This document shows positions 9,325-53,965 of a DNA stretch of 64,000 bases, in pieces. Position 1 is the first letter of the stretch. Each line of letters begins with the position of its first letter. This DNA comes from Gemmataceae bacterium (lineage in GTDB: Bacteria; Planctomycetota; Planctomycetia; Gemmatales; Gemmataceae): positions 59,420 through 123,419 of the forward strand of contig JBJMQS010000037.1 of the NCBI GenBank assembly GCA_045802605.1, given 5' to 3'. Under the pieces are notes generated by a model. That model was not told the DNA's origin and did no database searches. It saw only the letters and a list, made by a program, of their open reading frames with translations. The translations under genes and the position numbers were made by a program.

Positions 9325-9403
9325 AACCACAGAGACACAGAGAGCACAGAGAAAACCAAAACAAGGATTTGGTCTTCTCTGTGCTCTCTGTGTCTCTGTG
9401 GTT
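9325..9403. repeat. Hairpin repeat family copy A: perfect 29-bp inverted repeat aaccacagagacacagagagcacagagaa / ttctctgtgctctctgtgtctctgtggtt with 21-nt loop
   Basis: Related copies are at 23844-23908, 41637-41734, 43262-43353 and 53875-53965 (shared aacc-cagag-ac-cagagagc-gagaaaacca architecture). Confidence 0.8.
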
Positions 9404-9411
9404 AGTGCATT

Positions 9412-9891
9412 CTAGGCGTGCACGACTTCGCCGACTTCGCCGCGAGCGGCGCGTTCGGCTTTTTGCGTGCCGACTTCGGCCAGGACCGTCGCGGCGCGAT
9501 TAGCGTCGGCGGCGGAATCGAAGGCGGCATAGGCCACGAATCTCTCGCCCAATACGGTCATCGTCAAACCAGTGAAGCTAATGTCCGCAAGAGCCCATTC
9601 GCGGGTGAGGCGGGCGGCGAGGCCGGCCTTGTTGTCGCCTTCCACGCGAACGATGACAGGGTTGAACACTTCGCGAAGGCCGACGGCCTTGGCGGCTCGC
9701 TGTTGCTCGGGCCCGGAAACGGGTGCGATGTAGAGGATGCCGGAGCCGGGTTTGTCCGGCTGGCGGCGAGTGCCGACGTATTGCAAATTTGCGCCCGCTT
9801 CGGCCAAGGCGTGGAGCCTATGTGAAACTCCACCGGCCTCATCAGGCACCTCACAGGACCAGACGTGAACGCGATCCAATCGGAAGCTCAT
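9412..9891 (-). CDS. ACT-domain (amino-acid-binding regulatory) protein
   Basis: Two ACT-like halves (VHVWSCEVPDEAGGVSHRLHALAEAGANLQYV...; ...ISFTGLTMTVLGERFVAYAAF). The start is set at ATG 9891, preceded by 'aggggat'. Confidence 0.4.
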   Translation of the reverse strand: MSFRLDRVHVWSCEVPDEAGGVSHRLHALAEAGANLQYVGTRRQPDKPGSGILYIAPVSGPEQQRAAKAVGLREVFNPVIVRVEGDNKAGLAARLTREWALADISFTGLTMTVLGERFVAYAAFDSAADANRAATVLAEVGTQKAERAARGEVGEVVHA

Positions 9892-10062
9892 GGCTGGTGA
9901 TCCCCTCGTGAAAGAAAAGTGCATCCTGGCGTGCGTCGCGATTGTACCGCGCGAAAATGCCCAGCGGAACGGGCTAGGTCCGAAAAATGGCAGATTTTCG
10001 GACCGGGCCGAAAAGTGTGCGGCTGACGGGATTTGACCGGCTCGCGGAGACAATTCCGCCCA

Positions 10063-10995
10063 TTAATCCCAGTCGGCACCCGGCTTATCGCCGGCTTCAC
10101 GGGTCCAGAGGGCGTAAAAAACGGGGAGTTTGATCGTGACCGGCAGGAATTTCACGGCCCCGTCGCCGAAGAGATACAGGCCACCATTGGGATGAAAGCT
10201 CCAAAGCTCGTTGCCGTTTTCGCAGTTAAAGCACTGGGTCCCGCACCATGCTTCGATCCAAAATTCAGCACTGGTGTCGTTCCAGGTGTACGGTCCCGTC
10301 TGCCAGCCAGTTGCGCCGGTCCTCGCGTGAAATTCGTTGGGGCGTCCGGCGTCCTCCGGCATCACGATTGTTTGTGAAAGTCCATCGGAAACGTCAGTAA
10401 TCTTCGTTGGAGCTCGAGGCTGCGTATATGGCGTGGGAATTCGCCAGAACCCGCGGCCCTTTGGCATCGTCTCGCTGATCCACAATGAGCCCAGCTTGCT
10501 GGCTGCCGTACCCGACCACCGGCTGGCGACAGCATAGTCACTGCGCGACGTGCCCTTAGGGTGTTCCAGCGGAACTGAAGGACACTGAAAGGTTCGGACA
10601 TCCGTGTAACTGATTTGGTAGTTGGTCATTCCGCCGAGATTTGAAGTTGTGTTCGTGTAGTCCTTGTAAAGGTCATATCGAAACGCTAATGACGTCTCTT
10701 CCAGATACGACAACAACGTGGGTTGCCAGTTGCGCGACCCCCACGTTTTCCCCGCAGTGGGGGCCGGTCGTCCTCCCTCTTCCCAGGGAACTCCAAAATC
10801 GCCCGTGTCATTTTGTAGTTGATGAAAGGCCAGCCCAATCTGCTTCAAGTTATTCATGCACTTTGCGCGGCTGGCTGCCTCGCGAACCGCCTGCACAGCA
10901 GGCAGCAATAGCGCCATCAGGATCGCGATGATCGCGATCACGACGAGAAGTTCAATGAGGGTAAATGCAGATCGTCGGGAAGGGCTCGAGTTCAT
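10063..10995 (-). CDS. DUF1559 (H-X9-DG) protein with prepilin-type N-terminal cleavage/methylation domain (pseudopilin-like), paralog 1
   Basis: The N-terminus [31 protein letters not shown] is a type IV pilin-like signal. The C-terminus [18 protein letters not shown] is the H-X9-DG motif. Confidence 0.8.
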
Positions 10996-51262: not shown

Positions 51263-51546
51263 GGGGGAATTCCTTGGGTTGGTAAACCGGGCAAGCTGGC
51301 GAGTTCTCGGCGAGGTCTGGGCGCACGATCTAAGCGACGGTTACCCGTAGTCTAGATCGGCTCAGGTAGTTTGGGCAGGTATCGGGAACATTATTGGGCG
51401 TGAATGATTGTACCAAGTCAACCTGGCACAATGGGGAAAAGTCCTGTGGAAGGACCAAACCGAATAAAAGGCCTAGGCGTGTATCACACGTTTTCACTTG
51501 CCCCACTTGGCGAGCAATATCCCAGTAAATCTAGGCCGTCCGGGGT

Positions 51547-52404
51547 TCAGTAAGCCGCGGGCAACTTCGCACTCCGCAACCAAGCCGTGTACCAGATATC
51601 CATGGTGAACTGAGCCCCTGCCTTGCAGCGAGCCATCACGAACGCCCGGCTCTCGTCCGTTGGCTTGGCGATAGCGCCGGCCGCATCGAGGCGATACGAT
51701 TCCTCAATCTGGCGGTGCGATTCTCGCAAAAATGCCACGACATGCTCAAACACATCACCCTCGATCGCCTGGGCCTTTAAGCCTTGGCAAATCTCCTCGG
51801 GCGTAAACCCGTTTGTTTCCGGGTAGCCATCCAGCTTGGCGTGGATGCCCTTTTGCACCATCTTGCCATCCGCCCCCCGACGGCCATCGTAGTCGCGCGT
51901 GGTATGCAACGGCATCGACGCGTCGGTCGTGTAATGGGCAAGATTCCCCGCGTAAACCACGGCCTTCATCGCAATCGCGGGATTGCCCGGATCATGCCGA
52001 TAGTCGGCGAACGCACAGGTGAGCCGATCGAATCCCTCGCAAATCGACCACGGCAGCAACCCGGCCTTCTCCGGCGAGTGATTCAATTTTTGAAACAGTG
52101 AAATTGCGACGTAGCGCGAGTTGGGAGGCGTGTTGCCTTCCAGGTCCTCCATGTCCAGGAAGTGATGCGGCGCCTCCGCATCCTTCAAATAGGTCGCCCC
52201 GCGGTTCTTCCAGCGATCCGGATCGCCGGCACAATGGGCGAGCGACTTGCCCGCGGCCCGGAAAAACGCCGGCACATCTTCAGGCAAACCGACGGCGGCC
52301 GCCTCGGTAATCGTCTCGTGGCCCTTGATCCACCACGCCGGAGCGATGCCGGCAAATCCCAACACCGCGGCTATGAACAGCGCGAGCGTTAATCGTTTTC
52401 GCAT
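51547..52404 (-). CDS. S1/P1 nuclease / zinc-dependent phospholipase C superfamily protein, secreted
   Basis: Signal peptide then WWIKGHETITEAAAVGL (compare the WG..GH start of S1/P1 nucleases). The start is trimmed to ATG 52404. Confidence 0.4.
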   Translation of the reverse strand: MRKRLTLALFIAAVLGFAGIAPAWWIKGHETITEAAAVGLPEDVPAFFRAAGKSLAHCAGDPDRWKNRGATYLKDAEAPHHFLDMEDLEGNTPPNSRYVAISLFQKLNHSPEKAGLLPWSICEGFDRLTCAFADYRHDPGNPAIAMKAVVYAGNLAHYTTDASMPLHTTRDYDGRRGADGKMVQKGIHAKLDGYPETNGFTPEEICQGLKAQAIEGDVFEHVVAFLRESHRQIEESYRLDAAGAIAKPTDESRAFVMARCKAGAQFTMDIWYTAWLRSAKLPAAY

Positions 52405-52581
52405 GGGAACATCTCTGTGGAACATCAAAAAGTAGTGTTTGTGCAGGGTATAGCACCCACCGCGGGGTTGCAAATTCTTTCTATTCCTGGAATGAACCAA
52501 CAAAACCGGTCCCGCCGGTCGATTCGCACGAGGAGGAAGATTGCCGGGGCTACCGGCCGTGTTGCGCCATGGAGGTCGCAC

Positions 52582-53874
52582 ATGCGAAGGATCGCACTTT
52601 GCAGCCTAGGTTTGGCATTAGCCGCGCTGCCGGCTCAGGGGCAAGGGCTCGTTTGGCAGCCTGCGCCACAACAACCCGCGAACGCGGCCACGCTCAGCCG
52701 GCCCATCGCCGGACCTAGCACGCCAGTGGTCCGCGCTCAGATGGGCGACACGCCGGCAATCAACGTCCCCGATTCAGCTCCGCCGGTCTATCCTCAGTAC
52801 TATCCGCCCCCGCCGAACTACTACGCACCACCGCCGGGGTATTACCCCCCGCCGCCGTCGAACTACCAGCCGCCGGCGAACTATCCGCCGGCGTACAACG
52901 GTAACCCGATCTCGACCAAGGGAGATCCGGTCCGTCGAACATCATTCTCATCGCGATCCAGTACGAGCAAATTCGGCGAAAACGCGGGAGAGTTCTTCGG
53001 CGGTTGCTGCGACGGTGTCAAAGACTTCTGCACGGCCGACGGCCGGCAGTTGTTCCAAAGCGATCACTGCTTGGATAGCTTTGCATCTCCGATCACGAAC
53101 CCGTTCTTGTTTGAGGATCCGCGCTCGCTCACCGAGGTGCGCCCGATCTTCATGTGGCAGCAGATCCCAGGCTCGAATCCGGTCTTTCAGGGCGGCGATG
53201 TCTTCTTCTACGGCTTGCAGGCACGAATTTCGCTGACCGACTGGTTATCGTTCACGATCAACAAACTCGGCGGCGTGACGTTCAATGCCGACAACCCCGC
53301 GATCGACGATACCTCCGGCATGGCTGAACTATGGCTCGGACCGAAGTTTACCTTCTACCGCAACGCTGAGTGTGGCTCCGTATGGGCGGCTGGTGCGATC
53401 TTCCAAATCCCCACTGGCCCCGCCAAAGTGCTCCAAGACACCGGCAGTTTTTCGATCGTGCCGTACTTGTCCGGTGCACAGAACTTTGGCCGGAATAGCT
53501 ACGGCAGCTTCAACGTGATGGATACCTTGGGCTATTCATTCAACGTCGGCGGCGGCCGAAGCGACTACCTCTACAACAGCTTCCACATCGATTTCGATGT
53601 GGTCAATGCTCACCGGTTCTATCCGCTCTTGGAATTGAACTGGTTCCACTACACGTCCAGCGGCGAGTCACGCCCGGTGCAATTCGAAGGCGCGGATTTG
53701 GCGAACGTCGGTGCGTTCGGCGTCTCAGGCCGCGATTATTTGACCATCGCCCCGGGCTTCCGGTACAAGTTCTCGGAATGCGTGCAGGCCGGTATCGCGG
53801 CGGAATTCCCGCTGACCAGCCCGCACGATCTGGACAACTTCCGGCTCACGTTGGATTTGATCTTTAGATATTAA
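52582..53874 (+). CDS. Outer-membrane beta-barrel-like protein with Pro/Tyr-rich low-complexity segment (PPVYPQYYPPPPNYYAPPPGYYPPPP)
   Basis: Signal peptide MRRIALCSLGLALAALPAQG; C-terminal ...LTLDLIFRY. The start is trimmed to ATG 52582 (RBS ggaggtcg). Confidence 0.45.
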   Translation: MRRIALCSLGLALAALPAQGQGLVWQPAPQQPANAATLSRPIAGPSTPVVRAQMGDTPAINVPDSAPPVYPQYYPPPPNYYAPPPGYYPPPPSNYQPPANYPPAYNGNPISTKGDPVRRTSFSSRSSTSKFGENAGEFFGGCCDGVKDFCTADGRQLFQSDHCLDSFASPITNPFLFEDPRSLTEVRPIFMWQQIPGSNPVFQGGDVFFYGLQARISLTDWLSFTINKLGGVTFNADNPAIDDTSGMAELWLGPKFTFYRNAECGSVWAAGAIFQIPTGPAKVLQDTGSFSIVPYLSGAQNFGRNSYGSFNVMDTLGYSFNVGGGRSDYLYNSFHIDFDVVNAHRFYPLLELNWFHYTSSGESRPVQFEGADLANVGAFGVSGRDYLTIAPGFRYKFSECVQAGIAAEFPLTSPHDLDNFRLTLDLIFRY

Positions 53875-53965
53875 GATTGAACCGCAGAGTACGCAGAGAG
53901 CGCAGAGAAAACCAATACTAGGCATTGGTATTCTCAGCGCTCTCTGCGTACTCTGCGGTTCAATC
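53875..53965. repeat. Hairpin repeat family copy E, exactly filling the gap between the convergent OMP stop and fabF stop
   Basis: gattgaaccgcagagtacgcagagagcgcagagaaaaccaatac / gtattggtattctcagcgctctctgcgtactctgcggttcaatc. Confidence 0.8.

Follow-up and report, generated by a model that had tools for sequence, protein, structure and literature searches.

Five intergenic hairpins of a Gemmataceae bacterium are built from a widespread repeat arm that also flanks genes for predicted GxxExxY nucleases

The stretch of DNA analysed in this work, hereafter the window, comprises 64,000 nucleotides (nt) from a Gemmataceae bacterium (assembly GCA_045802605.1, contig JBJMQS010000037.1, positions 59,420 to 123,419 of the forward strand) and has a GC content of about 60%. 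Between its genes lie five long related hairpins, copies A to E (Table 1), which were noticed in an earlier reading of the sequence (hereafter the original prediction). Their arms are copies of a repeat of about 30 nt which in other genomes also forms the terminal inverted repeats of a small cassette carrying a gene for a GxxExxY protein of the PDDEXK_3 family, a predicted nuclease. The genes next to the hairpins are housekeeping ones or typical of planctomycetes, coding for FabF, a DeoC-type aldolase, outer-membrane efflux protein (OEP) and HlyD efflux components and a BBP7 porin.

Copy A is located between two minus-strand genes, 9 nt past the stop codon of 9412..10053(-), and the convergent gap between the HlyD-family gene 40444..41634(+) and the BBP7 porin gene 41738..43105(-) is taken up by copy C from one stop codon (TAA) to the other (TGA). 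Copy D ends 7 nt downstream of the stop codon of the gene 43376..51262(-), which codes for a protein of 2628 amino acids (aa), and lies 156 nt upstream of the BBP7 gene start, the porin gene thus being bracketed by copies D and C. Copy E begins exactly with the stop codon TAA of 52417..53874(+) and ends with the TTA of the FabF gene 53966..55213(-), its TAA stop on the minus strand; the native FabF stop is kept here, since the C-terminus VVGAYK preceding it matches the VVGAFK end of the homologues. The placement at gene ends proposed originally is therefore correct for copies A, C, D and E and wrong for copy B, which is situated in the divergent promoter gap between the starts of the aldolase gene 22688..23791(-) and the OEP gene 23985..25412(+).

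All five hairpins were confirmed at the predicted places by position, folding, a motif census and a covariance scan. Compared with dinucleotide shuffles, single-strand folding gave -64.3 kcal/mol (z -12.5) for copy A, -41.1 (z -6.3) for B, -88.8 (z -17.8) for C, -84.6 (z -15.0) for D and -77.2 (z -17.0) for E. The motif CAGAG-N3-4-CAGAG is present 10 times in the window against 0.15 expected, each time within one of the copies. A covariance model made from the five-copy alignment and run over the whole 64 kb with the filters off scored copies A to E at 90, 60, 115, 107 and 118 bits, respectively, while the next-best matches, with at most 51 bits, are unrelated long hairpins matching by structure alone; because everything below 60 bits is unrelated, the window holds exactly five copies. 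The palindromes, with stems of 24-49 bp, measure 80-106 nt and consist of two arms and a loop of 6-8 nt. Their near-perfect stems were rightly recognised, but those of C, D and E are longer than first given and copy B is degenerate. In the five-copy consensus stem of 41 pairs, both sides have changed with the pairing kept in 11, which means that the compensatory changes reported earlier are real. The stems of C, D and E run 7-15 base pairs (bp) beyond the conserved AACC head into copy-specific sequence, with the outer stem AAGATAAGAGAC/GTCTCTTATTTT being peculiar to copy C and GAAGAGAAGAG/CTCTTCTCTTC to copy D. As the palindromes of other genomes usually end 1-2 nt past ACC, these long outer stems are a local feature, possibly a nested insertion into an older hairpin or the result of palindrome growth.

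Table 1. Coordinates in the window of the five related hairpins and of further long palindromes
Feature	Position	Strand	Description
Copy A	9325..9403	.	A-type units CACAGAG; 36-bp arms, 97% complementary; 7-nt loop
Copy B	23842..23909	.	Degenerate; 17-24 bp stem, 88% complementary; left head GACG for AACC
Copy C	41633..41738	.	49-bp arms, 96% complementary; 8-nt loop; conserved core 41646-41725
Copy D	43262..43368	.	Core 43275-43354
Copy E	53872..53968	.	45-bp arms, 96% complementary; 7-nt loop
Further palindrome	91-205		Long, near-perfect, intergenic; unrelated sequence
Further palindrome	1073-1180		Long, near-perfect, intergenic; unrelated sequence
Further palindrome	3409-3570		Long, near-perfect, intergenic; unrelated sequence
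Further palindrome	29856-29918		Long, near-perfect, intergenic; unrelated sequence
Further palindrome	33136-33215		Long, near-perfect, intergenic; unrelated sequence
Further palindrome	35198-35244		Long, near-perfect, intergenic; unrelated sequence
Further palindrome	56493-56566		Long, near-perfect, intergenic; unrelated sequence

The arm consists of a head T-T-N-A-C-C (AACC in this genome) and three tandem RCAGAGnnn units of about 9 nt, often followed by AAAACC. All ten arms of copies A to E fit this definition (a TTNACC head plus three RCAGAG units), the left head of copy B being decayed, and the consensus of 212 unique arms from elsewhere is the same as that of the window arms. A scan of one genome per species (GTDB) with the pattern AACC-R-CAGAG-N3-4-CAGAGAGC resulted in at least 120 loci from more than 100 genomes. 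Among the matches listed there are Planctomycetota, Verrucomicrobiota, Cyanobacteria, Chloroflexota, Acidobacteriota, several proteobacterial classes, Thermodesulfobacteriota, Myxococcota, Gemmatimonadota, Chlamydiota, Bacteroidota/Ignavibacteria, Spirochaetota, Armatimonadota and smaller phyla, as well as the archaea Methanoperedens, ANME-1 and a Methanobacteriota metagenome-assembled genome (MAG), whose arm-bearing contigs carry archaeal markers (Trm5b, an aRF1-family protein and an archaeosortase-related domain); no Bacillota are found among these loci. The element had been considered lineage-specific, which does not agree with its presence in at least 15 bacterial phyla, Archaea and phage contigs.

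By our own estimate, about 70 matches to the pattern would be expected by chance in the whole collection. The arms found are not chance matches, because the positions left free by the pattern are conserved (the third unit at 91-98%, likewise the spacer GACA, and the TT before AACC at about 70%), because the exact 28-mer AACCACAGAGGACACAGAGAGCACAGAG recurs in 19 loci from at least nine phyla and one archaeon, and because the choice between A and G is concerted across the three units of an arm (AAA in 53, GGG in 36 and mixed in 23 arms). Arrays of AACC plus three tandem units number 440 as opposed to 33-130 with control heads, and the same layout is observed with other unit types, namely ACGGAG, ACGAAT, GCCAAG, GCGGAA and ACGAAA. 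Such a design, with three CAGAG per arm phased at 9-10 bp, that is about one helical turn, a concerted A/G choice and variant unit types preserving the layout, might also be expected of arrays of protein-binding sites with a nucleoid or regulatory role. We regard this as very unlikely, as arrays of this kind do not predict the strong bias to gene 3' ends and the flanking A- and T-tracts described below, and the only candidate binder is the GxxExxY protein itself, which merges this explanation with the one we favour.

Three other likenesses of the arm were considered and discarded. A Shine-Dalgarno array is suggested by the GAGG present in many arms, but the window units CAGAGT and CAGAGA do not contain it. 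Reading TGAACC as the -35 element of an extracytoplasmic function (ECF)-like promoter would, by reasoning, make inward-facing arms fire into each other. The resemblance of AACCGCAG...CUGCGGUU to helix 45 of E. coli 16S rRNA is of a degree, 10 matches out of 12, which is estimated to occur several times by chance.

Outside the genome scan, arms were found in 89 IMG/VR contigs, about 35 of them from one phage clade, and on Gemmatirosa megaplasmids (24 and 15 places), Bacteroides plasmids and Pseudoalteromonas chromids, and 98 metagenome contigs carry a variant with the inner GAGAAAACC part. Neither 5,426 E. coli genomes nor the INPHARED phage set yielded an arm element. The arm is among the most widely spread non-coding modules that this analysis could find. 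Rfam 15 gave no match at the gathering threshold in the window or in eight other element-rich loci, permissive thresholds yielding only sub-threshold lookalikes of plant microRNA precursors. No description of the element was found in the searchable literature, by DNA string, arm-encoded peptide or concept, most subscription journals being outside its coverage.

About one third of the arms have an inverted partner within 130 nt and form hairpins like those of the window, and the remaining ones are arranged in inside-out pairs (GGTTAA...TTAACC) or are solitary. Single arms between same-strand genes have the purine strand as the sense strand in 53 cases against 22, often begin at the upstream stop codon or no more than 10 nt from it, and in at least 9 of 74 cases the TAA or TGA of the head itself serves as the stop codon of the upstream gene. 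A stop codon in the head was nevertheless rejected as a defining feature, as TTAACC and TGAACC contain one but the census made without a head constraint is led by TTCACC and TTTACC, followed by CTCACC and then by TTAACC/TGAACC.

Several loci with other arrangements deserve a description of their own. The members of the phage clade (L129, L131, L137, L142, L152, L160, L162, L169 and about 27 other IMG/VR loci) possess one sense arm each, beginning right at the TAA that ends a small membrane-lipoprotein-like gene; next come (CTTAAAA)4 and a gene coding for 181 aa. This arm is a transcribed intercistronic module and not half of a hairpin. In Bacteroides ovatus BFG-107 (NZ_CP081918.1; L311, 2501-2575) a hairpin of the same design, TTCACC-ACAGAGG-ACGCAGAGG-ACACGGAGG ... 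GGTGAA, lies within the gmd-fcl operon, separated by 10 nt from the stop codon of gmd and by 15 nt from the start codon of fcl, and the PLSDB gene table, which is incomplete, shows no feature at this site. Two metagenomic contigs with 96% identity differ by the presence of a 787-nt segment (L226, 524-1310) or its absence (L217, 398/399); the extra segment is a HEPN and MNT (nucleotidyltransferase) toxin-antitoxin pair inserted about 10 nt past a shared single arm, and the empty site reads aaaaccCAAGAACtttattCAAGAACaacgc. Arms may thus be landing marks for small selfish cassettes.

In a Spirochaetaceae MAG (OZ245056.1; L065 and L079) the intergenic regions are crowded with mixed arm units (CGCAGAG, CACGAA, CACGGAGG), with runs of more than 20 arms per 2 kb, and inside-out pairs (GGTTAAAA-20 nt-ATAAACC) bracket units of about 1.5 kb whose genes have no Pfam match. 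Regularly spaced same-strand copies, seen in L065 and L064, together with the AAC...GTT of the two palindrome ends, call to mind integron attC or gene-cassette recombination sites, and integrons are known in several arm-bearing phyla. The probability of this origin is practically negligible, given that the stems are near-perfect without extrahelical bases, the ends do not fit RYYYAAC / GTTRRRY, and the copies are scattered between housekeeping genes such as those for FabF, aldolase and efflux proteins, with neither an integrase nor an array.

The arms constitute the terminal inverted repeats of a small cassette consisting of an arm, a GxxExxY gene and an inverted arm, which escaped the original prediction, as did about 15 other hairpins of the window. 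The protein of about 125 aa encoded between the inverted arms matches TIGR04256 ('GxxExxY protein', 3.8e-46) and PF13366 (PDDEXK_3, 4.8e-45). In the loci selected for their arms, an arm is located within 8-223 nt of five of the six GxxExxY genes in the arrangement arm>-gene-<arm, typically with the sense arm 28-36 nt before the start codon and the inverted arm about 20 nt after the stop.

The same association was observed from the protein side. Protein similarity alone was used to gather 116 homologues. The C-terminus is too long in 35 of them and consists of translated arm sequence in at least 27 of these, including 17 of the antisense type ending in SASSASLR, with the stop codon provided by the head GGTGAA, and 10 of the sense type HTAEAQSSQRK; one open reading frame (ORF) reads through an entire hairpin, and three of the six N-terminal extensions read PQRTQS, which is the sense arm. 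About 30% of the database entries for GxxExxY proteins (homologues P0121-P0240) are wrongly extended into arms, with tails SASSASLR, SAPSAPLR and HTAEAQSSQRK and N-termini such as MPMIPVDEPQNMQQPQRTQS. The DNA flanks were read for six independent genes of normal length, from Poribacteria, an anammox planctomycete, Anaerolineae and other MAGs. An antisense arm is present 4-11 nt after the stop codon in all six, and a sense arm abuts the start codon in four, the other two (L324 and L333) having arm-type hairpin sequences upstream instead. All six cassettes sit tightly between host genes of the same orientation, the gaps measuring 35-200 nt, two of them within an ABC-transporter gene pair. Over the full-length cassettes as a whole, the inverted arm lies 4-25 nt past the GxxExxY stop.

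The window arms are 85-93% identical to the cassette arms over 27-29 nt, shuffled controls reaching about 10 matches, and a tblastn search with four GxxExxY proteins revealed no such gene in the 64-kb window (best E = 0.3). The window hairpins are thus gene-less versions of the cassette and, like miniature inverted-repeat transposable elements (MITEs), share their terminal inverted repeats with a longer, gene-bearing element. As for the protein, E27, D67 and E77-x-K79 are invariant and the AlphaFold model has a predicted local distance difference test (pLDDT) score of 93, and it is predicted to be a stand-alone Cas4-like PD-(D/E)XK nuclease with an intact active site. The literature found on GxxExxY/PDDEXK_3 is restricted to a survey of the PD-(D/E)XK superfamily and a passing mention; what that survey reports on the family matches the odd distribution of the arms. 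A search of viral contigs for GxxExxY proteins resulted in no confirmed relatives.

The loops of copies A, C, D and E are mutually related (AC(A/T)AGG-like), so whole hairpins and not single arms were probably the unit copied in this lineage. A second planctomycete (67-69% GC, with PSCyt2/PSD1 genes) harbors hairpins 90-96% identical to copy C, the apex included, and the window copies are 85-91% identical among themselves. Relatives whose FabF is 76-81% identical have no hairpin after the FabF stop codon and only 0-1 long hairpins per 12-21 kb, versus 14 found in the window by the same scan. These observations fit gain by copying, and the view that the repeats are non-coding, structured and similar to repetitive extragenic palindromes (REPs) or MITEs is supported.

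The agent of this copying could be sought among the known ones. A classical REP or REPIN (a REP doublet forming a hairpin) is moved by a REP-associated tyrosine transposase (RAYT) of the Y1 HUH type, and the design of two inverted repeats forming one long hairpin and the intergenic location are REPIN-like; genuine GTAG-tagged REP doublets are also present in the window at 4163-4257 and 18814-18894. This origin seems extremely improbable for copies A to E, though, as their arms have neither the GTAG/CGTC tag (defined in PMC3733652) nor a mini-hairpin or self-complementarity within a single arm, no Y1-transposase family is recurrent near arms, and the gene between the arms codes for a PD-(D/E)XK nuclease. 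Probes for IS200 TnpA and the E. coli RAYT, which were approximate queries, matched only two IS200-like genes, in L139 and L050, in 1.8 Mb of arm loci. An ordinary MITE derived from an insertion sequence with a DDE transposase (e.g. IS630 or IS5, with a TA or TTAA target) would likewise have terminal inverted repeats, a small size and dispersed copies, and the head TTAACC does contain TTAA. It is hardly likely at all, since the head variants TTCACC, TGAACC and TTTACC are inverted at the two ends and hence belong to the repeat rather than to a target duplication; moreover, no transposase recurs between or near the arms, and inward-facing arm pairs 300-1500 nt apart are no commoner than outward-facing controls.

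With regard to the gene ends, 85 non-redundant hairpins from other genomes were used to describe the anatomy. A T-rich tail (at least 5 T per 8-nt window, no more than 16 nt past the stem) accompanies 48% of them versus 11% of control positions (p 2.6e-11), and an equivalent A-rich leader 39% versus 11% (p 2.7e-7). Convergent gaps are enriched (23 convergent, 21 tandem and 2 divergent against a baseline of 47/92/34; odds ratio (OR) 2.7, p 0.004) and divergent ones depleted (OR 0.19, p 0.013), which upholds the proposed bias to gene 3' ends. In the window, copies C, D and E have tails with 5-6 T per 8 nt, interrupted, and 4-5 A before the stem, the tails of A and B having 4 and 3 T. The statement that no copy has a T-tract thus holds insofar as there is no uninterrupted T-run, and needs correction for the T-rich tails and A-rich leaders of C, D and E. 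The order A-tract, stem, T-tract common to these three copies is the anatomy of a bidirectional intrinsic terminator; a generic terminator scanner calls none of the five. Termination by the hairpins is suggested by this anatomy, and the action on transcript 3' ends proposed originally is plausible in view of the 3'-end bias and the terminator-like structure.

Hairpins without strong U-tracts in E. coli are read as exonuclease-trimmed 3' ends stabilised by the hairpin (summarised in PMC12642595). With this precedent, and with hairpins directly following stop codons and compensatory changes in their stems, copies A to E might be RNA-only elements which determine mRNA stability or processing, as an exonuclease block or an RNase III site, and have no mobility. 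However, the stem mismatches on the transcribed strand show no preference for G.U (18 G.U versus 26 A.C, p = 0.29), so neither the compensatory changes nor the near-perfect pairing are evidence of selection at the RNA level. The pairing fits the maintenance or copying of a palindrome at the DNA level. The claim that structure is conserved rather than only sequence is not supported, for this reason and because the arm sequence itself is extremely conserved. The RNA-only explanation is improbable, considering also that the primary sequence is conserved across phyla beyond what pairing requires, that arms of this kind are also found alone, in inside-out pairs and on both sides of a gene, and that nothing is found at the orthologous FabF site in relatives.

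The main rival explanation has the same central finding, the link between arm and nuclease gene, and reverses its causality: the hairpins would be host terminators or 3'-end stabilisers, the GxxExxY gene would be selfish and home into their loops, and the window hairpins would be unoccupied targets. There are precedents for this in IS1397, which inserts into the loops of bacterial interspersed mosaic elements (BIMEs), and in class C group II introns, which insert into terminators. The terminator-like anatomy and 3'-end bias of the gene-less hairpins agree with it, as do their far greater number compared with filled cassettes (six GxxExxY genes per about 300 loci), the complete hairpins found beside the gene in L283, L324 and L333, and the HEPN-MNT cassette inserted right beside an arm, which suggests that arms are landing sites. 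Host terminators, on the other hand, are not expected to keep an identical 28-mer over at least nine phyla and Archaea unless there is sequence-specific upkeep, e.g. by a nuclease; four of six cassettes have the sense arm abutting the ATG with no residual loop sequence; and the spread of the hairpins themselves is left unexplained. On balance we consider the reversed order of events unlikely, though it has to be taken seriously.

The explanation we favour is that copies A to E belong, as palindromes without the gene, to a very widespread family of cassettes; taken as a whole it appears probable to us, with moderate confidence. The hairpins would be copied as whole units at the DNA level in a MITE- or REPIN-like manner, the likeliest agent being the GxxExxY nuclease acting in trans, which would cut at or near arms, with repair from another copy, in a process similar to homing. 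The copies would persist just after stop codons, where they would be harmless or useful: with its long stem and a T-rich tail on either strand, a hairpin would terminate or insulate transcription from both sides and block 3' exonucleases.

A number of points weigh against this explanation. All-against-all clustering of 1,464 ORFs revealed no protein family recurrent near most arms, only families of the phage clade, so any enzyme must act in trans for the great majority of arms. The absence of a GxxExxY gene applies to the 64-kb window, and the nuclease activity and arm recognition of the protein are predictions; it could simply be a passenger for which the arms serve as ribosome-binding site and terminator. 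No mobility event was seen, and the search for insertion polymorphisms gave no orthologous pair of empty and filled sites: the relatives found through FabF are evolutionarily too remote and share no synteny, the locus shows an identity of only 87% between two Pseudoalteromonas strains, copies for comparison are lacking in E. coli, exact-protein look-ups returned the same locus from different samples instead of different loci, and synteny is lost in the relative of the ABC-transporter pair. Target-site duplications are not visible either: the sequences flanking C, D and E are inverted complements and not direct repeats; elsewhere there is no consistent direct repeat beyond the palindrome end, in a test that palindromic duplications (TA, TTAA) would escape. 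The terminator role, for its part, is read from anatomy, and the window copies have no uninterrupted T-run; copy B is situated in a divergent gap; and some hairpins lie inside operons, like the Bacteroides gmd-fcl one, where a strong terminator would be polar. Finally, the 53:22 sense bias of single arms is explained by neither a terminator nor a mobile-element role.

More tentatively, and as a conjecture we would not yet back over its alternatives, arms and GxxExxY genes may represent an unrecognised, REPtron-like class of tiny selfish element spread across prokaryotes, in which a minimal Cas4-like PD-(D/E)XK nuclease in place of a tyrosine transposase would read the three-unit repeat and copy both itself and the gene-less hairpins, the latter having been domesticated as bidirectional terminators in phyla without canonical ones. 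The unit types (CGGAG, CGAAT, CCAAG and others) would then match nuclease clades of altered specificity.

Copies A to E are not the only long hairpins of the window. About 15 more, from unrelated families and similarly placed, were detected, and with all families counted, a long hairpin is present in 5 of 9 convergent, about 9 of 33 tandem and 1 of 8 divergent gaps. Gene-end hairpins are a general habit of this genome; canonical terminators with a stem and a T-run are not enriched in this region (17 found, 16.2 expected). Several of the seven further palindromes listed in Table 1 are built of short tandem units (TCCCGAGGCT x2, ACTCGAAATCCGA x2, GGTGAGG-type), and several fill gaps from stop to stop, the one at 33136-33215 ending in the TTA stop of 33204..34172(-). 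The palindrome at 56493-56566 is a perfect one of 54 nt and fills a tandem gap of 64 nt. The REP doublets at 4163-4257 and 18814-18894 are a different repeat, consisting of inverted TGTAGCCGCGGGCTTTAGCCCGCG past gene ends and tagged with GTAG, as is usual in REPs associated with a RAYT (Di Nocera 2013), and the relative L121 has a GTAGGGTGGGCACCGCCCACC hairpin at 8671-8732. Lastly, the hairpin at 15483-15605, with 43-bp arms made of CCCCTCCC / GGGAGGGG blocks, resembles the intrastrand-triplex 'TMECO' motif of E. coli, CCCTCNCCC...GGGNGAGGG (PMC4666352).

The five copies look ordinary on their own, and yet they point to a function that can be tested in a large family of orphan proteins and to an explanation for a very widespread repeat outside the curated families. 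If the favoured explanation is true, PDDEXK_3/GxxExxY proteins, which number thousands in Bacteria, Archaea and viruses and are listed as having unknown function, gain a genomic context and a candidate substrate, the flanking arms, while a widespread intergenic repeat without an Rfam entry gains a candidate partner enzyme, as REPs did with RAYTs. The hairpins would also be candidates for the insulation of convergent genes in Planctomycetota, Verrucomicrobiota, Bacteroidota, Chloroflexota and Cyanobacteria, which are poor in canonical terminators. For annotation, gene callers turn arms into junk peptides such as SASSASLR, FTAEDAE and NHRGHRE, and the arms provide an easy marker with which ORFs extended too far can be corrected. 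The gmd-fcl copy of Bacteroides ovatus offers a tractable experimental system.

Among known systems, the closest in logic is the 'REPtron' of REPIN/REP and RAYT (Bertels & Rainey 2011, PMC3116915; Ton-Hoang 2012, PMC3333891). In both cases short intergenic repeats pair as inverted doublets into long hairpins, preferentially after genes, and non-autonomous copies greatly outnumber one small enzyme gene flanked by the same inverted repeats. The flanked gene differs, coding here for a Cas4-like PD-(D/E)XK nuclease of about 125 aa and not for a Y1 HUH transposase, and so do the arms, which comprise three tandem 9-nt units without a GTAG/CGTC tag or an internal mini-hairpin and are nearly identical across phyla and domains, whereas REP families are specific to a genus or species. 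The MITEs Correia (Neisseria) and Nezha (cyanobacteria) are likewise gene-less, dispersed and intergenic, keep only their terminal inverted repeats and can supply terminators; unlike them, the element described here shows no target-site duplication, has no DDE transposase as a partner and retains as internal sequence only the 6-8-nt loop.

Bidirectional terminators, including the inverted pairs of DNA-uptake sequences in Neisseria, share the A-rich leader, the long GC-containing stem, the T-rich tail, the enrichment in convergent gaps and the use of a repeat as the stem. The stems of 29-49 bp exceed what termination needs, however, the T-tracts are interrupted and the sequence is common to phyla and not specific to a species. 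Intervening sequences in the 23S rRNA genes of Leptospira and others consist of a small ORF, coding for a four-helix bundle protein (PF05635), between inverted repeats inside the rRNA. They too enclose a small gene of unknown function between inverted repeats that would pair in the transcript, with a patchy distribution and bursts of paralogues in the same phyla, and differ in protein family and location; two four-helix-bundle genes are present in arm loci, both more than 4 kb from any arm. Finally, free-standing homing endonuclease genes are also small nuclease genes flanked by the sequence that would be needed for copying into unoccupied sites and are transferred across lineages, their known targets being unique conserved genes in contrast to the dispersed repeat that would be the target here. 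Taken by kind, the elements are palindromic repeats of a non-autonomous type whose partner gene has these repeats at its own flanks, and they may define a new class.

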